Position numbers and translations under genes: made by a program. Shown piece by piece: positions 8,204 to 63,313 of a stretch of 64,000 nt of DNA. The stretch comes from Bacteroidota bacterium. GTDB taxonomy: Bacteria; Bacteroidota; Ignavibacteria; Kapaibacteriales; UBA2268. The notes under the pieces were generated by a model. It did no database searches and had not been told where the DNA came from. It worked only from the letters and a program-made list of their open reading frames with translations. Positions within the stretch are counted from its first letter, which is position 1, and each line of letters begins with the position of its first letter. The stretch lies in contig JAJRTW010000129.1 of assembly GCA_024278075.1 (NCBI GenBank), positions 7,522 to 71,521 of the forward strand. The letters run 5' to 3'.

Positions 8204-8380
8204 TTCCGCACCGGAGAAATTAGTATGATATGTACTTTCGGATAAATCATAGATGATAGAACAACTAAGTTACTGAAATATTGAATAATAAAATATTTAT
8301 TATAGTTATAGTATGCTTTTGGAATTCCCCACAGCCTGCTTAAACATACACATCCGCAGCCGTTTTGTTAAAGTATTTTT

Positions 8381-8650
8381 TGTACTGTCCGGTTAACAAA
8401 AAGAGTCATTCCTACTATATGCTTGAATACTATGTCCTGTAATCCTGAGCGGAGTCGAAGGATCCAGTGTTTATGGCTCCTCTGGCAGTATTAAGATGGA
8501 TTCATCACTACGCCATAAATGGCTTCGTTCTGAATGACGCACTTTTTCCGTAGCGTCAGGACTTCCCGCCCTGATACTCTGACATATAATCCTTAAGCTT
8601 TCCGTAGTGTCAGGACTTTCCGTCCTGACGGCGTTACCATAGAATCATTA
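8381..8650. mobile_element. MITE-like composite palindromic element (left TIR ACTGTCCGGTTAACAAAAAGAG; GTCAGGACTTCCCG..CCTGAC hairpin modules); right end degenerate
   Basis: Shares the outer TIR and inner hairpin modules with elements at 14.4, 17.6, 46.7, 49.0, 57.4 and 63.1 kb. Non-coding. Confidence 0.5.
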
Positions 8651-8768
8651 TGTTATCAAACATAACTCTTATATTTCCCATAAGGTACATAGCCTTTGAG
8701 TAAAAAAGCCCGAAAAAATCGGGTTTATCTTTTGAATAGCGATATTAATTTATTTAACTTGCACAATC

Positions 8769-8855
8769 GGGAAGGTGCAGGAGTGGTTGAACTGGCACGC
8801 CTGGAAAGCGTGTGTACCTGCAAGGGTACCGTGGGTTCGAATCCCACCCTTTCCG
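8769..8855 (+). tRNA. tRNA-Ser (anticodon GGA), class II with long variable arm
   Basis: Hand-folded cloverleaf. Acceptor GGGAAGG/CCTTTCC, D stem CAG/CTG with GAGTGGTTGAA loop, anticodon stem CACGC/GCGTG with loop CTGGAAA. 18-nt variable arm, T arm GTGGG-TTCGAAT-CCCAC. CCA is not encoded. Confidence 0.8.
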
Positions 8856-9099
8856 CAATATTTATTATTTCATGGGATTTATAAAAATGGAATTAATAAA
8901 AAGAACAATTCAAGCCTCTTATCGGGGCTTTTTATTTATTTATTATCATTAATAAATTAGTATGAAGCAAATAATGTGCCGAACAGACAAGTATGTATAA
9001 GGATGGCGAATTGCCCTGCCTAATGTAACCGGAAAGAATAATTTTGATACAGTGGAAAAGTATATTATATTGAAGGAACGGAACTGCATAATTATATGA

Positions 9100-9132
9100 A
9101 ACTTATCCAAAGTTTCAAACTTTGGATAAGTT
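9100..9132. repeat. 33-bp palindrome AACTTATCCAAAGTTT-C-AAACTTTGGATAAGTT (copy 2 of 3), 36 bp upstream of the YD/CTD gene start
   Basis: Exact inverted arms. Same family as 2322-2354 and 10728-10760. Confidence 0.7.
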
Positions 9133-9168: not shown

Positions 9169-10704
9169 ATGAAAACACGTATTACCACACTCGCTATTCT
9201 CTTTGTCATATTTAACATTATCCCCTCCAATGCTATTGACGGACAAGCACGAGCCAAACCGGGGCACATTCCATTTCCCGGAATGAATGAACAGCAAGAA
9301 CTATTTCCGTCCGGACTTGGAGAAATGAACGAAGACGGTGCGGTAAGATTTATGAAGATGGGCGATGGGGTTCAAAGCAATCCGGGTTATCTTGTTGAAA
9401 GTGTAAGAGTGTATTCATTGGTTGATAGCAATACTAAATACATATACGCTTACAATGAAAGCAATCAAATATTAACTGAAACATCCGAAGGATGGGAAAA
9501 CGGTGCATGGGTGAATTATGAAAGAATAACCAACACTTATGATTCCGATGGTAATCTCCTTACTAATTCACAGCAAAGATGGGAAAACGGTGCATGGGTG
9601 AATTATGAAAGAAGAACCAACACATACGACGAGAATAGTAATTTATTAACATGGTTATACGAATTAAAAATTAGCGAAAAGTGGGTGGAATTAATAAAAT
9701 ACACCTACACATACGACGAGAATAACAATATGTTGACATGGCTACAACAAAGCGGTATTGATGATGAATGGGTAAATGTTTTCAGATTTTCCCATACATA
9801 CGACGAGAATAACAATATATTGACATTGCAGAGAGAGGACTGGAAAAACGAGGCATGGCTAATATACATGAGATATATAAACACCTACGACTCTGAAGGC
9901 AATTTAATTACAAAAATATTTTTACAATGGGAAAATGAAGAATGGCATGATTATTCCCGAAGCACCTACGACTATGATGATGAAGGCAAACAGCTGTCAT
10001 GGGTTAAAGCAACCTGGAAAAATGAAGAGTGGGTGGATTTTAGCAGAGAAATTAACACTTACGACATTAACGGCAATCTGATACTATGGACATCTCAAAA
10101 TCTGCAGAATGAAGAATGGGTGGGTTTTAGGCAGGAAACAAACACCTACGATACCGATGGCAATCTAAGAACATCTATATATCAAAGAATAAGAAACTAT
10201 GAATGGGTCAATGATTGGAGAAAAACTTACACGTACAACACCGACGGCAATTTAATAGTATGGTCATATAGTCTTTGGCAAAACGAAGAATGGGCAGATA
10301 ATGGATTCTATTTATCTTTTGAAGACTCCTATGGAAATTCTTTTGGTAACTATTACGGTTTCAGCATAGGAATTATATGGAGGAGTGCTACTTCTGTCGA
10401 GGATGAATCGGATGACAACTTCTCCGTAACGTCTTTCCCCAATCCGTTCTCCGGTTCCACTACAATAAATTATACTCTTGACAATCCCGCCCGGGTTCGT
10501 ATTAATATTTATGACAATCTCGGAATTAAAATAACTTCTTTGATTGATGAATATCAATCCGCCGGCGAACATCAGGCGATATTCAATGCAATAAAAACAG
10601 GCAATCGCCTAAAAACAGGCAATCGCCTGTCAGCCGGAATGTATTACTATACTGTTCAAATAAATAATCAATTTGAACAAGGGAAATTATTGCTGGTGAA
10701 ATAA
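9169..10704 (+). CDS. Secreted YD-repeat-like protein with T9SS CTD
   Basis: About 12 degenerate repeats W(E/K)N(G/E)xWVxxxRxTNTYDxxGNLLT (YD-like). C-terminus FPNPFSGSTTINYTL...GMYYYTVQI. In-frame 18-bp tandem duplication KTGNRLKTGNRL inside the CTD. Confidence 0.6.
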   Translation: MKTRITTLAILFVIFNIIPSNAIDGQARAKPGHIPFPGMNEQQELFPSGLGEMNEDGAVRFMKMGDGVQSNPGYLVESVRVYSLVDSNTKYIYAYNESNQILTETSEGWENGAWVNYERITNTYDSDGNLLTNSQQRWENGAWVNYERRTNTYDENSNLLTWLYELKISEKWVELIKYTYTYDENNNMLTWLQQSGIDDEWVNVFRFSHTYDENNNILTLQREDWKNEAWLIYMRYINTYDSEGNLITKIFLQWENEEWHDYSRSTYDYDDEGKQLSWVKATWKNEEWVDFSREINTYDINGNLILWTSQNLQNEEWVGFRQETNTYDTDGNLRTSIYQRIRNYEWVNDWRKTYTYNTDGNLIVWSYSLWQNEEWADNGFYLSFEDSYGNSFGNYYGFSIGIIWRSATSVEDESDDNFSVTSFPNPFSGSTTINYTLDNPARVRINIYDNLGIKITSLIDEYQSAGEHQAIFNAIKTGNRLKTGNRLSAGMYYYTVQINNQFEQGKLLLVK

Positions 10705-10727: not shown

Positions 10728-10760
10728 AACTTATCCAAAGTTTCAAACTTTGGACAAGTT
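10728..10760. repeat. 33-bp palindrome (copy 3 of 3, one mismatch) immediately 3' of the YD/CTD gene
   Basis: AACTTATCCAAAGTTT-C-AAACTTTGGACAAGTT. Preceded by partial AAACTTAT repeats. Confidence 0.65.
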
Positions 10761-11411: not shown

Positions 11412-11518
11412 TACGTCAAATATTGATAATCTTAAGTAATAAACAGACGAATAGCTGCAATTTAACTATTTTTTGTTGATTACTCCATCCATGAAACTAC
11501 TGAATTATCTTAGGCAAT

Positions 11519-11880
11519 CACTGTCCGGTGAAAAATGGGAGACTCTCTGAATATAATCCTAATATGCAAGTTGTGTTCTATAATATGATTAATCATATCG
11601 TATGATATATGATGCTGTCATTCCGAGCTTGCAAGGAATCCAGTATTTATGGCTACAACCAAGTATTTAATCCCAATACAGTTCATTTAACAACAATCTG
11701 ATTTTATTTCGTATTTTGTTTTAGTCATGTGGCTTATTCAATATTGTCAACTGTTGTGTCATTCGTACTATGTCATTGCCGTGACTACGAAGAAGCAGCG
11801 AAGCTCAAACGGGGATCCATTATTCCATGCACTATCTAACTATAAAAAGATGGATTCCGGATCAAGTCCGGAATGACAAC
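11519..11880. mobile_element. MITE-like composite element (left TIR CACTGTCCGGTGAAAAATGGGAG; GTCATTCCGAGCTTGCAAGGAATCC and GGATTCCGGATCAAGTCCGGAATGACA modules)
   Basis: Same module set as the other family members. No ORF. Confidence 0.5.
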
Positions 11881-12029
11881 TATAATGATCTGTCATAATT
11901 AGATTAACAAGCCATGAACCAAATATTAAGTGAACAGTATTGGTATTAACCCTCATTCTCTTTTACCACGAGCTAAAGCACGTGGCTATTGAAAAATATA
12001 ACATTAGATTGTATCCCTAACCTAATTCC

Positions 12030-13202
12030 CTAATTGTATTCGGGCAATGTATGTTCCCTACCCTTATTCTGCTCTTTTAAGTAATCCATCAGCGGGGCGA
12101 AATAATCAACCATCGGTTTGGCGCTCATATCCGAGCCGATGCTGGTTTGCAGCAATTCCCTCCAATCGACAGAAGCACCGGGCTTCATAATATCATAGAG
12201 GAATTTGCCGGTTTCCTTGCTGCCCCAGTAATTCGTAGAATGAGGGTCTTGCTTCAATATGTTCTTGGCGATATAATCATGGAACTGGAACAAAAGTACA
12301 TAGGAAATTGCATAGTCGTAATACTGTGCGGGGTCGTTGTTGATGTGTGTTTTCGAAGTGGCATCGCAATACTCCTCCCCGCGCTCTGCCGGAGGTACTA
12401 TCCCCTGATATTCTAATTTCAAATTCCACCATTTCTTGTTGAATTGCCCGGCATCCAGATTATTCGAATATAATTCCCACTCGAAATCAGTCATCACTCC
12501 TGCACCCCATGGGATAAAGACAATATATTCGAGAGCTTCTTTGAGCAATGTCATAGTTTCATCGGTTTTCGCATTTTCGTCGATAAGGCCAAGCCCGGTG
12601 AGGAATGGCTTCTGCAGGGAGGCAAGGCCGAGCAGGCTGCCGATTGCTTCGTGATAGCCCCTGTTGGCTCCGGTGCGAAGGACTATCGGGACATCTGGGT
12701 TTGTGTAGGCATCGAAATAATATATATGGCCGAGTTCGTGCAGAGTGGTTGCCCACCAGCGGGTGTTGTTGACAATACTCATCAGTGAACGCAGGTCGTT
12801 GTTCAGGTCGATATGCCAGGCCGAGGCATGATTGTTCTTCTTATAGTCCGCATCATCGGGAAGCGGATAGAGGCTCGACAGCTCGTAGAAAGAATGTGGC
12901 AGCGAATCCAGCCCGAGGCTCACATAGAACCTTTCGCCTTCCTTGACTATCCAGTTGCCGGGTTTTTCTTTCAATACTTCATCAAGGTTCATACCCTCGA
13001 CATTCACTAAGGCCGTCCAGTCCTGCCCCCACCTGTTGGGCATCCAGTGCGCCGGCAGCATATCCGGCACTTCCTTGCCATATTTTTCTGCCAATGTATA
13101 TCTTGCCCAGGTGTGCAATTCACGATAAAGCGGCCAGATGTCTTTAATCATACTCTGGCAAACCGCCCTCATTTCTTCAACTGTCATGCCATATTCAGAC
13201 AC
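12030..13202 (-). CDS. Peptidyl-dipeptidase A (ACE-like, MEROPS M2) catalytic portion, C-terminal 390 aa of a split gene
   Basis: HEXXH zinc motif TLHELGHIYY, GANRGYHEAIG and KWWNLKLEYQGIVPP align residue-by-residue with the ACE C-domain. Starts at GTG directly after an in-frame TAA. Confidence 0.75.
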   Translation of the reverse strand: MSEYGMTVEEMRAVCQSMIKDIWPLYRELHTWARYTLAEKYGKEVPDMLPAHWMPNRWGQDWTALVNVEGMNLDEVLKEKPGNWIVKEGERFYVSLGLDSLPHSFYELSSLYPLPDDADYKKNNHASAWHIDLNNDLRSLMSIVNNTRWWATTLHELGHIYYFDAYTNPDVPIVLRTGANRGYHEAIGSLLGLASLQKPFLTGLGLIDENAKTDETMTLLKEALEYIVFIPWGAGVMTDFEWELYSNNLDAGQFNKKWWNLKLEYQGIVPPAERGEEYCDATSKTHINNDPAQYYDYAISYVLLFQFHDYIAKNILKQDPHSTNYWGSKETGKFLYDIMKPGASVDWRELLQTSIGSDMSAKPMVDYFAPLMDYLKEQNKGREHTLPEYN

Positions 13203-13844
13203 TTAATAGGCGAAGAAATCGGAGTAATCCAAAGCCTGAACCGAAGCGTTCCTCAAGTGCCGAAGATTCTGCAATCCCTCTTTTAGGCCCTTACCCACTT
13301 CCTTGGACGCCTCCCATGCCTTCAATCTTTCCGTTAGGTCGGACGATTCGTCGAGGATTTTGTCGATGTCGTTGGTGGAAACCGGTTTGCCGTCAATCTG
13401 AAAATCAAATCCGAATAAGTCCTTGGTCTGTTTCGTATCCGCCTTGATTTTTTCCTTCACAACAGAATCAGCCGTAGCCGGGTTTCTTCCGGCGGTGTAA
13501 ATGATAGCGTCTAATTGCCTGGCCTGCAGGCCGGTTAATTTATTCTTATCGGCAAGGAAACCCTTAGCGCTTGTAATATTGTCGATACTGCCGGTGAATT
13601 TGGCATATTCTTCATTAGCTTTTTCGGCTAATTGGGCGGTTATGGTATCGCCTTCGATAATTTTAGTATTTAGCAGCCACTCCGCTTCGGAGGATTTTGT
13701 AACTAATTTCTGGATTTCAGCATTATATCCGTCCAGATAAGCCTGCACGGAATCCCTTAATTGGGAATAGTCTTCGGCGGGCTGTTCTTGTTTGCCGCAG
13801 GAAATTAGTGTGGCCAGGAGAATAAGAGTCAGGATTTTTTTCAT
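13203..13844 (-). CDS. N-terminal 213 aa of the same M2 peptidase (lipoprotein signal), terminated by in-frame TAA at 13203-13205
   Basis: Lipobox LISCGK. LKAWEASKEVGK...LRNASVQALDYSDFFAY matches the ACE N-terminal lid region. Same frame as, and contiguous with, 12030-13202. Confidence 0.65.
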   Translation of the reverse strand: MKKILTLILLATLISCGKQEQPAEDYSQLRDSVQAYLDGYNAEIQKLVTKSSEAEWLLNTKIIEGDTITAQLAEKANEEYAKFTGSIDNITSAKGFLADKNKLTGLQARQLDAIIYTAGRNPATADSVVKEKIKADTKQTKDLFGFDFQIDGKPVSTNDIDKILDESSDLTERLKAWEASKEVGKGLKEGLQNLRHLRNASVQALDYSDFFAY

Positions 13845-14395: not shown

Positions 14396-14430
14396 GAGAA
14401 TGCAAATATATTAATAAAATAATATATTTG

Positions 14431-14720
14431 GTCACAAGTATCCGGTTAAAAAGCAGTAAATAAGTTTAAATCATCGATTATTACTGCATATTAGTCTATA
14501 TTGTGCTATTTTTGATACGATTCGTAAATTAGTGAAATATAATATTAAAGCGCGTCATTCCGGACTTGTTGAGCTTGCGAAATCCCGCTATCGGGAATCC
14601 GGAATCCATCTCAATATGGCCACATAGCCCGTGAATACTGGATTCTGAAACGAGTTCAGAATGACAAGTCATAATATCCAGGTACATATTCTGAGCGTTT
14701 CTCTTTTTTTAACCGGACAC
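14431..14720. mobile_element. MITE-like composite element, complete (outer TIRs GTCACAAGTATCCGGTTAAAAAGCAG / TTTTTTTAACCGGACAC; inner GTCATTCCGGA...CAGAATGAC modules)
   Basis: Imperfect terminal inverted repeats plus nested hairpin modules. Non-coding. Its right end supplies a false upstream ATG for the next gene. Confidence 0.6.
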
Positions 14721-14759
14721 ATGTTATATTTGGTAAATAACTATTATGAAAAGCGTAAT

Positions 14760-15635
14760 ATGCTATATTATATTTTAATCTTTATTGTCTTTATAAACCC
14801 GGTTGTTTCGATAGCTGGCCAAACAGAGGAGGCAAAACTTCCTGACACATCAGCAACAAAAGTAAGCTCCACCAAACTTGGCATAATCGGCGGAGTGACG
14901 GCTGCCGGAGTTGTCATCGGGCAGATACACCAGTCCGGCACTTACTGGAATGAAAGGACAGCTTTTCATGCCATGCCTCTGGACAAGGAATACCCCGATG
15001 CCTTGATGGCGGATAAATTCGGCCACCTGTTCTTCGCCAATTTCCTTGCAAGTACATATAAATCAGCTTTTGAATGGGTGGGCTATAATCAGTCAAATGC
15101 GGCACTTCTCGGCGGGGGCGTGGCGTTGGCCTATCAGACACTGGTGGAGATGCAGGACGGATTTTCAGGCGGCAAACCCTACCTCGGCTTTAGCTATGGC
15201 GATATGTTGTTTAATACTGCAGGGGCTATATTCCCCTATCTGCAAATTAATTATTCGGTATTGAACAGATTCCGATTCAAGGCCAGCTTCCAGAAATCAA
15301 GCAACTTCGACCGGCTTAATTATAATTCCATCACAGAAGATTACGAAAGCACATATCACTGGCTGAGTATTAATATATGTGATCTGCTGCCAGATAATAT
15401 TCAACAATGGTACCCGGAATTTGTGAATCTTGCAATTGGGCATTCCGTTAGCAATATTGACCGCTATGGCGCCGGCGGCCACGAATTATATTTAGCTTTG
15501 GACTGGAACTTAGAGGCTTTGCCGGGAGATAATTTCTTCTGTGATTTCATCAAACAAACGTTTAATTTTTATAAACTGCCCGCACCGGCTGTGAAAATAT
15601 ATCCCAATGTAGTTTGGTACGGGCTGAAGTTCTGA
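14760..15635 (+). CDS. Secreted hypothetical protein (signal peptide); start moved to M34 of the six-frame ORF, downstream of the MITE
   Basis: MLYYILIFIVFINPVVSIAGQ signal peptide. The upstream 33 codons lie inside the repeat element. No confident family assignment. Confidence 0.45.
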   Translation: MLYYILIFIVFINPVVSIAGQTEEAKLPDTSATKVSSTKLGIIGGVTAAGVVIGQIHQSGTYWNERTAFHAMPLDKEYPDALMADKFGHLFFANFLASTYKSAFEWVGYNQSNAALLGGGVALAYQTLVEMQDGFSGGKPYLGFSYGDMLFNTAGAIFPYLQINYSVLNRFRFKASFQKSSNFDRLNYNSITEDYESTYHWLSINICDLLPDNIQQWYPEFVNLAIGHSVSNIDRYGAGGHELYLALDWNLEALPGDNFFCDFIKQTFNFYKLPAPAVKIYPNVVWYGLKF

Positions 15636-16167: not shown

Positions 16168-16189
16168 TATTACGAAACGCAATAAGAAA

Positions 16190-16398
16190 ACGTGTCATTC
16201 CGGTCTTGTTGAGCTTGTGAATTCCCGTATTTGGAAGTAATCCCGCCATCGTAAATACGGAATCCATCTTGATTATGCAAATAGCCTATAAATACCGGAT
16301 TCCTCGCTTAGCTCCCCGATGAATCGGGACATGCAGAATGACAAGTCAAATTTATTAGGATAATATCCGGAGAAGCGGCCTTTTTTCACGGACATCAG
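16190..16398. mobile_element. MITE-like element fragment (inner GTCATTCCGGTCTTG...GCAGAATGACAAG module, degenerate right TIR)
   Basis: Family modules present. The left outer TIR is absent, and this flank abuts the hicA 3' end. Confidence 0.5.
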
Positions 16399-17657: not shown

Positions 17658-17969
17658 GTCACAAGTGTCCGGTTAAAAAGCAGCCAATTGGTGATAATCA
17701 TAGTAATAAGCACCCTTTTGCCCTATATTGTGCTATAGTGGATGCAATTTCGGATTTAGCGAGATTTTATATTAAAGCGTGTCATTCCGGACTTGATCCG
17801 GAATCCATCTTTATTATAGCGAATAATATAATGAATACTGGATTCCCGCTGGAGTTTATCCTGAGCCCTTCGACTTCGCTCAGGATAAACTGCCGAAGGG
17901 CAGGAATGACACGTGACAGATATTAAGGGTATATTCATCAAGGCTCTCATTTTTTTACCAGACAGTACT
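17658..17969. mobile_element. MITE-like composite element, complete (TIRs GTCACAAGTGTCCGGTTAAAAAGCAG / CTCATTTTTTTACCAGACAGTACT)
   Basis: Inner TGTCATTCCGGACTTGATCCGGAATCCA hairpin and TTTATCCTGAGCCCTTCGACTTCGCTCAGGATAAAC hairpin, closed by GGAATGACACGTGACAG. Confidence 0.6.
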
Positions 17970-18090
17970 GATATTTTGTAATAAATTATTCCCTATTAAT
18001 GTACTACCCAGCCGCATACAGCTTGGTATCGATTTTGATTATCATTATAACAAGCAGGCAGGCCACTGGGAATAAAACCCGAGAGTGGGA

Positions 18091-18983: not shown

Positions 18984-19454
18984 TATTATAATATTATTAA
19001 TTCTAATCCCACATTGTGGGTTTAATACCCCGCTGCTTGCGGTGATTATTAAATTCTGTTAAACATTAATACCCCGCTGCTTGCGGCAGGGTAGTTTATT
19101 AGTTCGTCATATTATGAACTAATGAAGATACGAACATCTTATAATTTTATTTTTTAGCCTGCACTATTCGTAGAATATTCAAAATAACTGATATTTAATG
19201 TCAGATTTGCAGTGGATGGCAGGTATTACGGGATACTTAAATTGAGTCAATCCTGATTGCCATAGCCTCTGCCTAACTTAATAATATCTAATTAGTTACG
19301 AAGCTCTATAATAAAAGGCCCGAAATAATCGGGTAAATAAGGATATGTTTCAAACGTTAACGATTAATGAATAGGTAAATACGGAATATATAACTAGGGT
19401 TTCCTCAAAAAGTAGTCGAGGAAAAAGATTTTAATGATTATGATTAAAGGAGAA

Positions 19455-19600
19455 TAACAACCCCCTTAATCCCCCTTTTTTAAGGGGGAATTCTACTGGC
19501 TATTCCCCCTTAAAAAAGGGGGAAGTGAGCGATGCGAGCAGGGGGTTGTCCTACAATATGCAAGGCATAAAAGAATAATAAATCTATTTCCTTGCACCTT
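19455..19600. repeat. C-rich palindromic repeat element, inverted copy of 2010-2176
   Basis: The reverse complement aligns with 2010-2176 (TTGCACC...GACAACCCCCTGCTCGC...CCCCCTTTTTTAAGGGGG...). Confidence 0.6.
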
Positions 19601-19685
19601 TATAGTTGAATATCTATTGTAACTACAATACCAATAAGTATTTAATACTTTTTAAGGAATATATAAATACGGAACCGAAATTCAA

Positions 19686-24891: not shown

Positions 24892-24952
24892 TCGAAATAA
24901 TTGTTGAGCCAAGTGGTTAATAAATAATGTTATTGATGAATAATAGTTTTAG

Positions 24953-25086
24953 TGAATAATAGAATTAAAGAAAATAATAGAATTAAAGAAAATAATAGAA
25001 TTAAAGAAAATAATAGAATTAAAGAAAATAATAGAATTAAAGAAAATAATAGAATTAAAGAAAATAATAGAATTAAAGAAAATAAT
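24953..25086. repeat. 18-bp tandem repeat AGAATTAAAGAAAATAAT x ~7.5 in the porU-porV spacer
   Basis: Perfect head-to-tail copies. It generates the spurious LILLFS-repeat ORF on the opposite strand. Confidence 0.8.
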
Positions 25087-25372
25087 AATAAATAATAATA
25101 AAGATAAGAGTGCATAGGCTGGTGGAAATGAACAAGAACTGAGTATCGGGTTTTTGCCATCACCGCCGAATTAAAGTGCGGCCCGGCTAATGCCTGCATT
25201 TTCATTCAATATATAATTCCATTTAAACTTTGCATGGCTATCAGCCGCAGCATGTGAAAATGGTCGAAAATTTATTTAAATTATTTGGTGATTAGAAAAG
25301 TTTATTAGCAATTGAAAAAATATTAGAAATATAAATTCGTAATAATATAAATGTTATAATAAGGAATGAATT

Positions 25373-27524: not shown

Positions 27525-28043
27525 ATGGATCTCAATTATCTGAAAAAAATTATAAAAATCTTTGATGACAGCACGGCTACGAATCTTGAAATCAAAGAAG
27601 AAGGTGTTAATATCAAGATTTCGAATGCTCAGCCGGCCAATACTAGCGGGCAGGTGCCTTATCCCTTTTTCCCGATGCAAACCGCAGCTGCTCCGGTTCA
27701 GGGTAATCAAATTCAGCAATCGGCTCCGGAAACCTCTGCGCCGGTTCGGGATATGGTTAGTTCTGATGTTCAATCAGGAACCTCGGCACCTGATGCAGGG
27801 AATTATTACGAAATGAATTCGCCGATTGTTGGCACTTTCTATCGCTCGCCATCGCCGGATACCGATCCCTTCGTTGAAGTCGGGACGAAGATCAAGTCAG
27901 GGGATACTCTCTGCATCGTCGAAGCCATGAAACTTATGAACGAAATCGAAAGCGATATATCCGGTAATATTGAAAAAATATTAATTGAGAATGGACAGCC
28001 GGTTGAATATAATCAACCGCTATTCATTATCAAACCTGAATAG
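27525..28043 (+). CDS. accB: Acetyl-CoA carboxylase biotin carboxyl carrier protein
   Basis: Biotinyl-lysine motif [10 protein letters not shown] and a Pro/Ala-rich linker. Confidence 0.85.
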
Positions 28044-28169
28044 GTTGCACCTGAATAGGTTGCACCTGAATAGGTTGCACCTGAATAGGTTGCACCTGAA
28101 TAGGTTGCACCTGAATGGGTTGCACCTGAATGGGTTGCACCTGAATAGGTTGCACCTGAATGGGCGGCA
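28035..28169. repeat. 15-bp tandem repeat CCTGAATAGGTTGCA x9, whose first unit is the last three codons plus stop of accB
   Basis: accB ends ...AAA CCT GAA TAG. The unit is then reiterated 9 times, with two ATGGG variants, up to 65 bp before accC. Confidence 0.8.
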
Positions 28170-28233
28170 TTAGATTAATCGCTGCACCAGAATAGAATAT
28201 ATCAGAATAATCCTTAATAAATAAGAATAATAA

Positions 28234-29692: not shown

Positions 29693-29985
29693 ACTAGTGT
29701 CGTGTCATGCATACTTTGACGAATTATTTGTTGGCTGTCATTGCGGAACTTGTTTCCAAATCCAGTATTCACGGCCTATTTGGCTATATTAAGATGGATT
29801 CCGGATCAAGTCCGGAATGACATAGTACAGTTGACATATCACTAGTGTCGTGTCATGCATACTTTGACGAATTATTTGTTGGCTGTCATTGCGGAACTTG
29901 TTTCCAAATCCAGTATTCACGGCCTATTTGGCTATATTAAGATGGATTTCGGATCAAGTCCGGAATGACATAGTACAGCTGACAC
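29693..29985. mobile_element. Two tandem 148-bp copies of a MITE-like module (…GGATTCCGGATCAAGTCCGGAATGACATAGTACAGTTGACA…)
   Basis: Copy 2 (29841-29985) repeats copy 1 with about 3 substitutions. Preceded by a CCACGAACTAAAGCACGTGG mini-palindrome that also occurs at 11963 and 60957. Confidence 0.6.
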
Positions 29986-30033
29986 ATCACTATAATCGAA
30001 TAAACGCTTTTGTAATAATCGGTGCTACTGATA

Positions 30034-30106
30034 ATAGATACGTATAATCACAATAGATACGTATAATCACAATAGATACGTATAATCACAATAGATACGT
30101 ATAATC
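30034..30106. repeat. 19-bp tandem repeat ATAGATACGTATAATCACA x3.8 immediately upstream of gcvH
   Basis: Perfect copies ending 11 bp before the gcvH ATG. Confidence 0.8.
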
Positions 30107-30117
30107 TATGTAAATTA

Positions 30118-30510
30118 ATGGAGAAGAGAATGAATTTCCCAGTTGACCTTAAATATACCGAAGACCACGAGTGGGTTAGGGTAGAAGGGAATATAGGCAC
30201 TATCGGCATCACCGGCCACGCCCAGGGCGAACTTGGCGATATTGTCTATATTGATATTCCTGACGAATCTGCCGAATTGTCTCTGGGCGACAGCTTCGGA
30301 ACCATCGAAGCCGTCAAGACCGTTGCGGATCTTTTCTCGCCGCTGTCGGGGAAAATTATCGAGGTTAACACCGGGCTAAATGACAATCCGGAAGTAGCTA
30401 ATAATGACCCCTACGGTGATGGTTGGATTGTTAAAATCGAATTTACCAATCCCGCCGAATTAGATAAGCTTCTGGACGTGAATTCCTATAAAGAATTAAT
30501 TGGCCAGTAA
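30118..30510 (+). CDS. gcvH: Glycine cleavage system H protein
   Basis: Lipoyl-lysine motif GTIEAVKTVADLFSPLSG. Confidence 0.9.
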   Translation: MEKRMNFPVDLKYTEDHEWVRVEGNIGTIGITGHAQGELGDIVYIDIPDESAELSLGDSFGTIEAVKTVADLFSPLSGKIIEVNTGLNDNPEVANNDPYGDGWIVKIEFTNPAELDKLLDVNSYKELIGQ

Positions 30511-30600
30511 TTATCCGGTAATTATCCGGCAACTATCCGGCAACTATCCGGCAGCTATCCGTATTCGGCAATAATGAATTGGCAATAATGAATTGGCAAT
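30507..30600. repeat. Short tandem repeats (TAATTATCCGG x2, CAACTATCCGG x3, CAATAATGAATTGG x2) beginning in the gcvH stop codon
   Basis: gcvH ends ...GGC CAG TAA TTATCCGG, after which the 11-bp unit is reiterated. Confidence 0.75.
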
Positions 30601-30830
30601 AAGTAGTGATGTGTCAGGCATACTATGACGGTTCATTTAAGTTGTCATTCTGAACCCTTCGGCAGTCTATCCTGAGCCCTTCGGCTTCGCTCAGGATAAA
30701 CTATGTCGAAGGACTCAGGATAAACTCCGTGAAGAATCCAGTATTCAAAGGCTATTAGGATGTATCAAAATGGATTCCGGATCAAGTCCGGAATGACATA
30801 GTACAGTTGACACGTCAGTAGTATAAATCA
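30600..30830. mobile_element. MITE-like element (GTCATTCTGAAC…TATCCTGAGCCCTTCGGCTTCGCTCAGGATAAAC…GGATTCCGGATCAAGTCCGGAATGACATAGTACAGTTGACACGTCAG)
   Basis: Same hairpin modules as the other family members. Confidence 0.5.
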
Positions 30831-46724: not shown

Positions 46725-47035
46725 CAGTAGCGTCCGGTTAAATAGCAGTCAAAAAGTGCGAATCGCTGATATTAGCTTCACTTTGACCTATTATATGTTG
46801 CATTAGGTGCGATTTTGGATATAACAAAAATAGTTGTTAAAGTATGTCATACCGGACCCCGATCCGGTATCCATCTTAAATATAGCAAATAGCCTATGAA
46901 TACTGGATTCCCGCTGGAGTTTATCCTGATCCCTTCGACTTCGCTCAGGGTAAACTGCCGAAGGGCAGGAATGACACGTAACAGTTATTAAGGGTATTTT
47001 CTGCATAACTCTCATTTTATTAACCGGACAGTAGT
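46725..47035. mobile_element. MITE-like composite element, complete (TIRs CAGTAGCGTCCGGTTAAATAGCAG / CTCATTTTATTAACCGGACAGTAGT), 17 bp upstream of tRNA-Ser
   Basis: Inner modules are nearly identical to the 17.6-kb copy (…TTTATCCTGATCCCTTCGACTTCGCTCAGGGTAAAC…GGAATGACACGTAACAG). Confidence 0.6.
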
Positions 47036-47051
47036 ATTTGAATATACCACC

Positions 47052-47134
47052 GGAGGATTCGCATAATTGGTATTGCAGCGGTCTTGAAAACCGCCGAGCG
47101 CAAGCTCATGGGGGTTCGAGTCCCTCATCCTCCG
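47052..47134 (+). tRNA. tRNA-Ser (anticodon TGA), class II
   Basis: 83-nt cloverleaf. Acceptor GGAGGAT/ATCCTCC, anticodon stem GCGGT/ACCGC with loop CTTGAAA. 15-nt variable arm, T arm GGGGG-TTCGAGT-CCCTC. Confidence 0.8.
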
Positions 47135-47314
47135 CACTGCAATATTTAAGCCTCGTAATATCAATTATTTACGGGGCTTTTCTATAGATAAATACTTGCT
47201 AATTACTTTCAATGAACAGATACCTCCGGTAAAGTATTGTTTTTAACACTCGTTAAATAATGTTAATTTCGTTTTTTGATAACACATATTCAATCATAGA
47301 AATAAGACAAACCA

Positions 47315-49040: not shown

Positions 49041-49306
49041 GTCAGTAGTGTCCGGTTAAAAAGCAGTGAATAATTGGTAATCACAGTTATAGCCTGTATT
49101 TTGCCTTAGATAACGCTGGTTTAGATACAATTTCGTATCATAGCAATTATAATAATATTACTTGCCATTCCGGACCCCGTCCGGAATCCATCTTAATATA
49201 GCCACATAGCACGTAAATAATGGATTCTGAAACGAGTTCCGCAATGACAAATCATAATTATTAGGTATAAATTAGGAACGCCTCTCATTTTTAACCGGAC
49301 ACTACT
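49041..49306. mobile_element. MITE-like composite element, complete (TIRs GTCAGTAGTGTCCGGTTAAAAAGCAG / CTCATTTTTAACCGGACACTACT)
   Basis: Inner GCCATTCCGGACCCCGTCCGGAATCCATCTTAATATAGCCACATAGC…GCAATGACA module. Confidence 0.6.
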
Positions 49307-49368
49307 GTCTTATTGTCCCTTATGCAATCGAGCTAAGCTAAAGCCATAACAACTTCACAATATTCCGC

Positions 49369-52040: not shown

Positions 52041-52141
52041 TAGATATATAGCTAAGAGAAATATGTAATTGGCAGGGGTAATTCATTAATTGCCCCTATT
52101 ATTGCTATAGTGAAATCAGAGAAAACCCTCTAAATCTCCCT

Positions 52142-52384
52142 TTGAAAAGGGAGACTTTTAACCCCATTTACCAAGCGAGCTTGTTTCAAAGGGGGTGGTT
52201 CCGAAGGAACCGGGGGTTTCTAATTGAAGCCAGATATAGTGTTTGGTTTGTAGAAAATATTGGTATAGTAAAAACTCTACGGAAGCCGATTACTATTTCA
52301 GCGGCAGGTGAGACAGTGTCTACATTTCCTGGCGATCAATCAATTTTAATAGATCATAACGTTCCGGAGGAACCTTCTGAATAA
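52142..52384 (+). pseudogene. Silent duplicate of the C-terminal cassette of the 51189-52040 lipoprotein (gene fragment)
   Basis: ...LIEARYSVWFVENIGIVKT...IDHNVPEEPSE parallels ...LIEARYSVWFAEGIGIVKT...KDHNVPQAVQ. It lacks an N-terminal/signal region. Confidence 0.5.
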
Positions 52385-52783
52385 ATATTGTGCTAAGAGA
52401 AATATTTTTTGTAGGGGTAATTTGTGAATTGCCCCCATTATTGCTATAGTGAAATCAGAGAAAACCCTCTAAATCTCCCTTTGAAAAAGGGAGACTTTTA
52501 ACCCCATTTACCAAGCGAGCTTGTTTCAAAGGGGGTGGTTCCGAAGGAACCGGGGGTTTCTAATTGATTGGGATTCCCGCTCTACTGTCGCAATGACATA
52601 TTACAGTTGACACGCCGCTAATATATTAATCACGACAGTGAATGGAATACTATTATCCGCATGATCGAATTTTTCCCCGAGAGAAACAACCTGCCTTTTT
52701 AATTTCAATTTTTATTAATTTGAATAATTATCCCGTACATATTCGTTTAATAATTGATTTGACATTTTTTAATCCTCAATAAA

Positions 52784-57410: not shown

Positions 57411-57906
57411 TTGTCAAAAGTGCCGTCCTGATAATAAAGCGGCCAAATAGTAACAATCTCAGTAATAAGCCCCATTTTACCCTATATTGAGCTATTAAGG
57501 ATATATTTAGAAAATTGCGAAATATAATATTAAAGAGTGTCATACCGGACTTGTTGATCCCAATGAAATCCCGCATTGGGAAGTAATCCCGCTATCGTGG
57601 ATCCGTTATTCGAATTAAATCAAAACCCCCGGCATCTTCGGAACAATAGTTCCTTCGAAGCCATCCCCTTTGAAAAATGGGGTTTAAGAATCAAAGTCTC
57701 CCTTTCTCAAAGGGAGATTTAGAGGGTTTTCTTATTTTGCTGTGGCATCATAGCTTCATTTCCTTCTGCCTAACACTGTATTCCCGCAGAAGTTTATCCT
57801 GAGTCCTTCGACTTCGTTCAGGATAGACTGTCGAAGGGCGGGAATGACACGTGAAAGCTATTAAGGATATATTTAGAAAGACACTAATTTTATTCCCGGA
57901 CACTGC
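57411..57906. mobile_element. Large (~500 bp) MITE-like composite element carrying extra CCCCTTTGAAAAATGGGG / TCTCCCTTTCTCAAAGGGAGA hairpin modules
   Basis: Degenerate left TIR, right TIR TTTTATTCCCGGACACTGC. Inner GTCATACCGGACTTG…GGGAATGACACGTGAAAG. It shares the CTCCCTTTGAAAAGGGAGA module with 52130-52560. Confidence 0.55.
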
Positions 57907-58104
57907 TTATTTATCTTAATCACTGTGAAATTATGCTCAAAATCAAAATTAATAAATATTTCATTGATATTATTATCTTAAATATAATTATTCTTCGTCA
58001 TTTTCTTAGTTTTTTGTTATTATGAATATTGTTAATATGGATATTTTGTTTTTCAATAATTATTTTAATCTATCTATTTACCATAATTACTAATACTATT
58101 TATT

Positions 58105-62921: not shown

Positions 62922-63131
62922 TAGATAGGAGCAGGAAGCTGGGCATTGGTGATGAGAATTGGATTGTTTGATATGGAGATTTGGCCGGCAATGCCTTGCT
63001 AATAAAGTAATCCGCCCCATGGAAAAGAGATAAAAGGGGATGACTATTTCAATCATAAATTATGAATTATATTTTTAAGCATTAGATTGTGACCGCCAAT
63101 AACTCTAATAATAATTCATTTTTGTATCATT

Positions 63132-63273
63132 GACTGTCCGGTAAAAAATGAGAGTTGCTCTTAACTAATATCTGATTAATATGACTTGTCATCCTTCGAC
63201 TCCGGCCAGAATGACACTGCATTGAATATCGGCAAGGATTTGGAACGATTCATATTTTTAACCGGACACTACT
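63132..63273. mobile_element. Short (~140 bp) MITE-like element (TIRs GACTGTCCGGTAAAAAATGAGAG / CATATTTTTAACCGGACACTACT) with one inner GTCATCCTTCGACTCCGGCCAGAATGACAC hairpin
   Basis: Minimal member of the family, made of outer TIRs plus one module. Confidence 0.55.
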
Positions 63274-63313
63274 ATTCCACAGCACACTACAGAACCGTAT
63301 TTGCAGCAAGAAA

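Follow-up and report, generated by a model that had tools for sequence, protein, structure and literature searches.

Two families of miniature transposons share an inverted hairpin pair in the intergenic DNA of a Kapaibacteriales bacterium

What are the nested palindromes that recur between the genes of this 64-kb stretch of a Kapaibacteriales genome (the window, to whose positions all coordinates below refer), and what carried them there? The copy that raises the question, at 14433-14725, is one of a set that a first-pass annotation had taken for a single abundant family of non-autonomous, nested-palindromic elements resembling miniature inverted-repeat transposable elements (MITEs). We found terminal inverted repeats (TIRs) and 9-bp target-site duplications (TSDs) that bear out this general description. 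The idea of a single family did not survive: there are two non-autonomous miniature transposon families here, types A and B, with different outer ends and the same cargo, an inverted pair of hairpins, and unrelated repeats are nested among them. Our reading is that type A consists of MITEs of the IS4 type, that type B is also a MITE family, and that the hairpin-pair cargo of both is like the NTS repeats of Neisseria; we give this reading as a whole a probability of about 0.72.

The repeats themselves are far above chance. A find_repeats scan and a BLAST comparison of the window with itself converged on the same intergenic loci, at 8.4, 11.5-11.9, 14.4, 16.2, 17.6, 29.7, 30.6, 46.7, 49.0, 52.6, 57.4 and 63.1 kb, and the building blocks first listed are present at every locus named for them, with counts near zero expected by chance or found in shuffled sequence. 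Thirteen intergenic stretches with common repeat modules sum to ~3.1 kb, or 4.8% of the window, close to the initial estimate of 5%. The TIR 19-mer given at the outset has six matches at three or fewer mismatches vs none in 100 dinucleotide-preserving shuffles, and a 15-nt TIR core marks 13 element-associated ends. The spacer pattern GGAATCCATYTY-N16-30-AATAMYGGATT occurs six times and the hairpin unit GTCATTCC...GGAATCCA nine times without mismatch, where zero were expected of either. A TTTATCCTGAGC...GCTCAGGATAAAC palindrome is present in four copies and the "closing module" in seven, and a 27-nt hairpin, GTCATTCCGGACTTGATCCGGAATCCA, is identical in four copies from different contexts. Elements lie in both orientations, between convergent, divergent and tandem genes, and their neighbourhood is that of an ordinary chromosome (murC, two surA-like genes, accB/accC, gcvH, efp, xseA, ispF, ruvX, PorV and type IX secretion substrates).

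Several modules had to be redrawn. The perfect hairpin described in the first-pass annotation exists, but its true string is GTCATTCCGGACTTGATCCGGAATCCA and not ...GGAATGAC, all four matches to the latter sharing three terminal mismatches. GTCAGGACTTCCCGTCCTGAC is no general module, as it occurs at 1767, 8555 and 8609 only, and the GTCAGGAC... hairpin is confined to 1.77 and 8.55-8.63 kb. The sequence ATATTAAAG, thought to be a site next to which copies insert, turned out to be internal to the element, directly 5´ of the first hairpin.

Type A comprises nine copies or remnants of 146-494 bp. Outer TIRs had been correctly noticed, but were drawn too short and as imperfect: the terminus is the 20-nt CAGTAGTGTCCGGTTAAAAA, which is perfect at both ends of the best-preserved copy, A4 (49043-49307, + strand; 9-bp TSD TCTTATTGT). 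Comparison of the insertion flanks, a check the first-pass annotation had proposed, gave perfect 9/9 duplications in four copies, always at the same offset from the TIR core, and a 7/9 match in a fifth; a single 9/9 match at a fixed offset has a chance probability of 4e-6. From 5´ to 3´, the element consists of a left arm of ~100 nt, hairpin a, a spacer of ~28 nt (CTTAATATAGCCAnATAGCC..TGAATA), hairpin b and a right arm of ~45 nt. Hairpin a reads (T)GTCATTCC-stem-loop-GGAATCCATC and hairpin b, on the opposite strand, GTCATTCC-...-GGAATCCAGT. Length varies with extra palindromes in the hairpin loops (the TTTATCCTGAGC...GCTCAGGATAAAC palindrome, for example), with internal deletion in the 146-bp copy at 63.1 kb, and with nesting of an unrelated repeat in the 494-bp copy.

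The termini point to the kind of enzyme that moved type A. When a 48-nt query from the end of the copy at 49043 was compared with 72,556 plasmids, it matched exactly over 20 nt in two places, at an "IS4-like element ISPosp4 family transposase" on plasmid 2 of Polaromonas sp. JS666 (NC_007950.1). This locus is a 1328-bp insertion sequence (IS) that has the termini CAGTAGTGTCCGGTTAAAAG and CAGTAGTGTCCGGTTAAAT and lies between two copies of a 9-bp TSD, ATCGAATCT, and the terminal 19 of 19 nt of type A (CAGTAGTGTCCGGTTAAAA) are those of both ISPosp4 ends. The link is convincing despite a BLAST E of 0.8, because the match falls exactly at both tips of the IS and the TSDs are of equal length. The ISPosp4 transposase (389 aa) scores 290.6 bits on NCBIfam NF033592, the IS4 family, and its relatives carry DUF4372 and DDE_Tnp_1 as precomputed Pfam domains. 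Homologous IS from Rhodoferax (transposase 58% identical; ends CAGTAGTGTCCCAACG; 9-bp TSD AGTTGGGAT) and Phocaeicola vulgatus (transposase 44% identical; ends CATTAGTGTCCCATTAAAAT; 9-bp TSD TTTTACAAA) share the TIR core, TAGTGTCC..TTAAAA being found in the Bacteroidales homologue too. As a separate observation, the IS4 homologue on the P. vulgatus plasmid (NZ_CP143953.1; L132 ~346-1701) is inserted in the centre of a palindrome, as ATTGTTTTACC-TTTTACAAA-GGTAAAACAAT, with the 9-bp TTTTACAAA duplicated.

Judged by these sequences, type A is an IS4-family MITE with the ends and the TSD length of the ISPosp4-like clade, and a cognate IS4-family IS would be expected to have ends of the type CAGTAGTGTCCGG. 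The IS and type A share their first 19 nt, the 9-bp TSD and AT-rich intergenic insertion sites. Type A differs from ISPosp4 in its length, in having no transposase gene, and in an interior that is a hairpin pair and not recognisably IS sequence; the IS copies examined come from Betaproteobacteria and Bacteroidales, whereas the lineage of the window belongs to the FCB group. The initial statement that the window has no transposase held: Pfam recognized no transposase domain among the open reading frames (ORFs) of at least 100 aa and the plausible smaller ones across the whole window, and tblastn with four related transposases gave no match there. A resemblance of the left arm to the transposase C-terminus in one copy (DDLNLFTAF* vs DNQLNLFNF*) is weak, and we do not rely on it. 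A scan of viral contigs with the TIR produced a single chance match, inside a coding region, and the TIR core was not in any other locus that we fetched.

IS4-family enzymes, such as those of Tn5 and Tn10, are DDE transposases that act by cut and paste and make a 9-bp staggered cut in the target. By analogy, an ISPosp4-like DDE transposase (DUF4372 and DDE_Tnp_1), encoded elsewhere in the genome, would bind and cleave the 20-nt TIRs, excise type A, and insert it into AT-rich intergenic DNA by a 9-bp staggered cut that leaves the 9-bp duplications. Cut-and-paste movement of type A is what we infer from this comparison.

Individual type A copies retain different portions of the architecture. A1, the copy with which we began (14433-14725, + strand), has the TIRs CACAAGTATCCGGTTAAAAA and AACATGTGTCCGGTTAAAAA (reverse complement), and its 9-bp TSD, ATATTTGGT, occupies 14424-14432 on the left and 14726-14734 on the right; its hairpin a spans 14554-14608 (+) and encloses a further hairpin, and its hairpin b spans 14642-14665 (-). 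A2 (17660-17970, +) has the 9-bp TSD ATATTTTGT on both sides, hairpin a at 17781-17807, and hairpin b at 17839-17910 (-) with a loop that holds the TTTATCCTGAGC...GCTCAGGATAAAC palindrome. A3 (46725-47036, +; 9-bp TSD TTTGAATAT) ends 16 nt before a tRNA-Ser(UGA) gene at 47052. A5 (57415-57908, +) is degraded, with degenerate TIRs and a TSD that matches at 7/9 positions (ATTTATTGT / ATTTATCTT), and its spacer holds the nested repeat, at ~57612-57774, of the same family as repeats at 52.1 and 52.4 kb. The internally deleted A6 (63129-63274, -; 146 bp) keeps both TIR cores and has no TSD (4/9). The rest are less complete: A7 (8380-8542, -), ~230 nt upstream of tRNA-Ser(GGA), is a type A-like remnant with a degenerate hairpin pair and a single TIR-like end, CTGTCCGGTTAACAA; A8 (11516-11655, -) has one TIR-like end, CTGTCCGGTGAAAAA, a right arm and the hairpin GTCATTCCGAGCTTGCAAGGAATCCA; and A9 (16174-16398, +), which lacks the left TIR and left arm, keeps its hairpin pair and, in degenerate form, the right TIR, TTTTTTCACGGACATCAG.

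Type B places the same cargo, 85% identical to the hairpin pair of type A over 87 nt in the self-comparison, between other ends. It is ~150 bp long and palindromic from end to end, with the ends CTAGTG...CACTAG (CTAGTGTCGTGTC... and ...GACATATCACTAG); the octamer GTAGTGTC is present in the ends of both types. Two abutting elements at 29694-29845 and 29842-29992 (-), 148 bp apart and 98% identical, have a common CTAG junction. A third copy, B3 (30604-30823, -), has an expanded second hairpin with two CTGAG...GGATAAAC palindromes; a 9-bp repeat around it, CAATAAGTA, was considered as a TSD and rejected, as it lies asymmetrically with respect to the inverted repeats. A type B-like hairpin-pair element at 11746-11902 (-) has the arms GTCAACTGT..GTACTATGTCATT and an exact GTCATTCCGGACTTGATCCGGAATCCA unit, and an end fragment at 52570-52625 (+), half a hairpin plus GCAATGACATATTACAGTTGACACG, abuts a copy of an unrelated repeat family. 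Beyond the window, some 15 metagenome loci have the hairpin pair within an element of ~142 bp with the ends TAGTGTAGTGTCTCAG...CTGAGACACTACACTA, usually flanked C|TA...TA|G (metagenome contigs L009, L022, L027, L033, L039, L045, L067, L069, L075, L083, L084, L112 and L120 among them). Window copies of type B align with these elements, especially at the ...AAAGTATGCATGACACGACACTAG end, and by this alignment type B belongs to a MITE family of ~142 bp found widely in metagenomes. Enzymes of the IS630/Tc1-mariner type would presumably fit a duplication of the TA within CTAG. We found no paper that contains the strings of the ~142-bp element.

What, then, is the cargo? Both types have at their core two hairpins in inverted orientation, GTCATTCC-stem-loop-GGAATCC, in the form GTC-ATTCCGGA-loop-TCCGGAAT-C. 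In Neisseria, the NTS repeat, CGTCATTCCCGCGMAVGCGGGAATCYRG, includes the dRS3 sequence ATTCCC-N8-GGGAAT and is bound by SsnA, a 94-aa GIY-YIG nuclease that cuts a few nucleotides upstream, in single-stranded DNA and in one orientation only; cleavage depends most on the GTC before the palindrome and binding most on the C after it (Chenal et al., 2025; PMC11893778). The window hairpins have the same flanks as NTS (GTCATTCC and GGAATCCAG), retain both the GTC and the C that follows the palindrome, and read GGAATCC(A/G) at the 3´ side; like NTS and the related SRM motifs, they are oriented, intergenic, present in high copy and arranged in inverted pairs. Nine exact window units have (C/T)GTCAT on the 5´ side and a C directly after the palindrome. 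They differ in the stem, TCCGGA/TCCGGA with an ACTTGAT loop, in contrast to CCCGCG...CGCGGG in NTS, and in their position, which unlike that of Neisseria NTS is inside TIR-bounded transposons with no ssn gene nearby. We therefore describe the hairpins as NTS-like in form and as the probable recognition sites of a cognate single-strand-specific protein, with GTCATTCCGGACTTGATCCGGAATCCAG representing the putative Ssn recognition site in the unit. A connection to Ssn nucleases is something we infer for the window hairpins by analogy with NTS. The pair being inverted, each strand, when single-stranded, would show one hairpin with the orientation and flanks that are recognised by Ssn GIY-YIG nucleases. 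A test of strand asymmetry in the stems (G:T vs A:C) was dropped, as it is confounded by the loop-closing position.

The inner hairpins had been considered possibly lineage-specific, a suggestion that did not hold. A metagenome scan for CATTCCGGAC-N2-8-TCCGGAATCCA placed hairpins of the GTCATTCCGGACTTGATCCGGAATCCA type in at least 120 contigs, and the NTS/dRS3/SRM class to which they belong occurs, together with Ssn homologues, in many bacterial phyla (Chenal et al., 2025; PMC11893778). Among the matches listed, 116 occurrences were usable; 112 are preceded by (T/C)GT, most have a G after them, and at least 53 of the 116 have an inverted partner within 130 nt, most commonly GTCATTCCCGCGAAAGCGGGAATCCAG, an exact NTS. 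Compensating stems (ATGCCGG, ATCCCCG, ATTCTGA and ATCCTGA) are found with the same loop and flanks. A scan of the genome collection with the spacer pattern gave seven matches, about the number expected by chance; among them is one true relative, a Bacteroidetes metagenome-assembled genome (MAG; L006), with the same inverted pair and spacer and with canonical NTS stems, TGTCATTCCCGCGAAGGCGGGAATCCA...TGGATTCCCGCCTTCGCGGGAATGACA.

One metagenome contig (L080, Ga0172380_10000502) has, at 12090-12450, a 100-aa GIY-YIG gene (PF01541, 1e-16) bracketed by the inverted hairpins TGTCATCCTAAGGAATCGAAGGATCTC and GAGATCCTTCGATTCCTCAGGATGACA, which is the architecture described for ssn genes, which frequently lie between copies of the motif (Chenal et al., 2025; PMC11893778). 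The same contig has a second GIY-YIG gene (99 aa, 547-843), with no GTCAT-type hairpin in the ~250 nt on either side. The bracketed gene bears on an explanation of the REP/BIME/REPIN kind, in which the hairpin pair itself is mobile, by means of a RAYT-type tyrosine transposase or an Ssn nuclease, and the outer repeats are incidental. The pair does resemble a REP doublet, it stands in two outer contexts in the window and in many in metagenomes, and the NTS-ssnA-NTS arrangement has itself been likened to an insertion sequence (PMC11893778). However, exact 9-bp TSDs and DDE-type IS4 ends, as in type A, are not products of hairpin-directed single-strand transposition, and all hairpin pairs in the window are within type A or B elements or their remnants. 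Neither a Y1 nor a RAYT domain was found in the window with Pfam, nor was a GIY-YIG gene there with Pfam, a regular expression, or phmmer using a YhbQ sequence and two metagenome GIY-YIG proteins. We consider independent mobility of the pair quite unlikely, and prefer movement by way of the outer ends.

A number of observations weigh against our reading of IS4-type and type B MITEs with NTS-like cargo. On the side of the transposase, the best 120 matches to the transposase profile were all ISPosp4-like (80-97% identical) or belonged to the own cluster of the Prevotella query; no ISPosp4-like transposase from the lineage of the window was among them, and the few with a taxon name are proteobacterial, so that this set is silent on that lineage. 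For type B, a possible TA is the longest duplication to be seen, and its end matched no IS in the plasmid collection. On the side of the cargo, the published SRM expression, HGTCWYN(0-2)YYVSBRHN(0-5)WNVSBRGN(0-2)RNCYNB, has no match in the window, since the TCCGGA stem lies outside the composition it allows, and neither has the dRS3 core ATTCCC-N8-GGGAAT, the window units being ATTCCG-N9-CGGAAT. Altering the palindrome while keeping a hairpin abolishes the activity of Neisseria SsnA (PMC11893778), so the window hairpins would need a different cognate enzyme. A GIY-YIG gene was seen at one of the 120 listed hairpin-bearing metagenome loci, and the hairpins that flank it are of a different subclass.

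The remaining points concern mobility. Aligned with one another, type A copies are 63-80% identical, which gives no sign of a recent burst and points to old elements or to multiple sub-lineages. In favour of mobility, a relative whose MurC is 80% identical (GCA_054033535.1, locus L129) has a type A copy between a conserved 125-aa ORF and murC, and the same interval in the window has no element; the flanking spacer cannot be aligned, which makes this an insertion/deletion polymorphism and not a clean empty site. An orthologous empty site for A4 was sought, and no close relative was found; the MurC relatives that bear a name, ~60% identical, come from Ignavibacteria, Kapabacteria and FCB-group MAGs. 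A second assembly of the relative's region begins inside the type A copy, an instance of how such repeats break assemblies, as they also create false start codons (ORF 14661, below).

One could also take the elements for inert MITE fossils, with neither mobility nor a role in the host, whose hairpins came to resemble NTS by converging on a simple GC-rich palindrome. Copies that diverge by 20-37%, several of them truncated, internally deleted or interrupted by other repeats, would be expected of fossils, and the zero matches to both the SRM expression and the dRS3 pattern would be expected of convergence. Set against this are the perfect TSDs of four copies and the perfect 20-nt TIRs of one, the identity of the 27-nt hairpin in four contexts, and the recurrence of the GTC...C unit in at least 120 unrelated contigs, often with a canonical NTS partner. 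We think it unlikely that the elements are no more than this, and retain the reading of MITEs with an NTS-like cargo. On the same analogies, a cognate transposase and an Ssn-like nuclease would be encoded in this genome, and the elements might be active at present or have a function in the host.

The folding of the elements could also be that of RNA. As single-stranded DNA, A4 (z = -5.25), A2 (z = -4.73) and the type B pair at 29.7 kb (z = -3.36) fold far better than their shuffles, none of which reached the observed energy in any of the three. If the repeats were genes for structured noncoding RNAs or cis-regulatory RNAs (multi-stem small RNAs, leaders or terminators), conserved for RNA function, such folds would follow, as would stems that covary around a fixed ACTTGAT loop and fixed flanks. 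Every type A copy in + orientation also has a sigma70-like ATGACA-N17/18-TAtatT (9-10/12) in its right arm, at 14661, 16338, 17906, 46971 and 49244, and one hairpin is terminator-like. However, a near-perfect palindrome can fold as well on one strand as on the other, which would be expected of repeats that act at the DNA level, copies lie in both orientations and in all intergenic contexts, and the TSDs and IS ends account for their spread. The possibility that the elements fall within structured-RNA genes, raised as an objection at the start, fails: Rfam finds only four tRNAs at gathering thresholds, and no element is credibly matched even at E<=1. A match of a hairpin to a miRNA model (E = 0.11, at the relaxed threshold) is spurious. 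Terminator-like sites are not enriched (2 vs 3.4 and 3 vs 2.6 expected). An origin of these repeats as RNA genes thus seems very improbable to us, and DNA-level MITEs remain the better description.

Under the MITE reading, the most likely consequence of transposition would be to seed Ssn-type hairpins and cruciform-prone DNA across intergenic regions. A wider suggestion, which we put forward tentatively and would not yet bet on, is that Ssn-type hairpins spread through bacterial genomes as cargo of MITEs mobilised by DDE transposases, the carrier being an IS4/ISPosp4-type element here and the ~142-bp CTAG-ended MITE in many environmental bacteria. If true, this would answer how the repeats of the Ssn study reach hundreds of copies, and would join a transposon family to a single-stranded DNA nuclease system with control over recombination or transformation. 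Should the hairpins prove to be real Ssn targets, the elements would offer a concrete way, open to test, for these sites to multiply and come to lie next to genes, and the NTS/Ssn system would take in an FCB-group lineage as well as a hairpin subclass missed by the published expression. MITEs and NTS/SRM hairpins are each known singly; the combination, and this hairpin subclass, are new. In the literature that we could search, no MITE with an inverted NTS-like hairpin pair as its conserved core was found.

Other small repeats share features with these elements. The NIMEs of Neisseria also have short inverted hairpins that bracket 20-150-bp spacers, are intergenic, and have other repeats inserted in them (PMC1797815), but they form long arrays without outer TIRs or TSDs, whereas each MITE in the window has one hairpin pair, with spacers of 13-30 nt, and the only array is the two abutting type B copies. 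We found in the window neither dRS3 nor long arrays of 50-150-bp repeats with dRS3 flanks. REPINs and BIMEs are likewise inverted palindromic doublets that form a long hairpin and are abundant and intergenic; the window elements have no sequence relationship to REP units or RAYT genes, and REPINs have no target duplication, in contrast to type A. Correia elements of Neisseria and BOX elements of pneumococcus resemble the window elements in being small, modular and intergenic and in lacking autonomy; variants with internal deletions and possible effects as promoters are further points in common. The TIRs of Correia elements are 26 nt long and their target duplication is TA, BOX elements lack both TIRs and TSDs, and neither kind shares sequence with the elements described here.

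The first-pass annotation held that A1 supplies a false ATG that extends the next ORF, and this is plausible: the ATG at 14661 lies within the GAATGAC of hairpin b, and the frame is open to an in-frame ATG at 14760, which starts the signal-peptide-like MLYYILIFIVF. By its sequence, this segment (MLYYILIFIVFINPVVSIAGQ) looks like the signal or lipoprotein leader of a DUF2279 protein. Since the Pfam match to DUF2279 begins only at residue 115 and such a leader starts at 14760, the first 33 codons of ORF 14661 are most likely an artefact of insertion. Genes for a HicB-like antitoxin (PF15919; 14114-14410, -) and a UPF0150/HicB-like protein (PF21748; 15754-15987, +) flank the DUF2279 gene and adjoin two element copies.

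The sigma70-like sites in type A are composed of the GAATGACA of hairpin b and of the right arm, and point out of the element across the right TIR. Effects on the host, among them the promoter, terminator and rearrangement roles first proposed, are possible. A type A element lies just upstream of each tRNA-Ser gene (8380-8856 for GGA at 8769, and 46725-47135 for UGA at 47052), and in A3 the promoter-like ATGACA-N18-TATTTT, at 46971-47000, is upstream of the tRNA-Ser gene at 47052, for which this copy may supply the promoter. The left TIR also has an outward -35-like hexamer, TTAACC, on the minus strand at 14449 and 17676.

Several other repeats are present in the window. A short hairpin, CCACGAGCTAAAGCACGTGG(C), stands beside three element loci, at ~11966, 29616 and 30911. 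A second repeat family, ~220 bp long (78% identity over 97 nt), has inverted copies at 1957-2178 and 19447-19656, with CCCCCTTAAnAAAGGGGG hairpins and AACAACCCCCT...AGGGGGTTGT. Copies of a third (...AGAAAACCCTCTAAATCTCCCTTTGAAAAGGGAGACTTTTAACCCC...GGGGGTGGTTCCGAAGGAACCGGGGGTTTC) are in tandem at 52057-52220 and 52396-52570 and inverted in A5, at 57612-57774. A perfect 33-nt palindrome, AACTTGTCCAAAGTTTGAAACTTTGGACAAGTT, is found in three copies (94-97%) at gene ends, at 2322-2354, 9100-9132 and 10728-10760, and could be either a small repeat family of its own or a bidirectional terminator that is shared. Intergenic AT-rich tandem arrays lie at 24919-25105, 28019-28183, 30026-30120 and 30511-30560; their units include an 18-nt sequence in ~10 copies, the 15-nt ACCTGAATAGGTTGC in 10 copies between the accB-like gene and accC, a 19-nt unit in four copies upstream of gcvH, and short TATCCGGCAAC repeats after gcvH.

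Two observations concern coding sequences. A Peptidase_M2 (ACE-like) gene is split by an in-frame TAA at 13203-13205 (-) into ORFs 13844-13203 and 13202-12030 (...DYSDFFAY*VSEYGM...), and is either a pseudogene or the product of a sequencing or assembly error. Within the Por_Secre_tail gene at 9169-10704, an 87-nt (29-aa) repeat is present in seven copies of 60-85% identity, at 9488-10251, and gives the protein a periodicity of the W..W...Y.YD..GN type.

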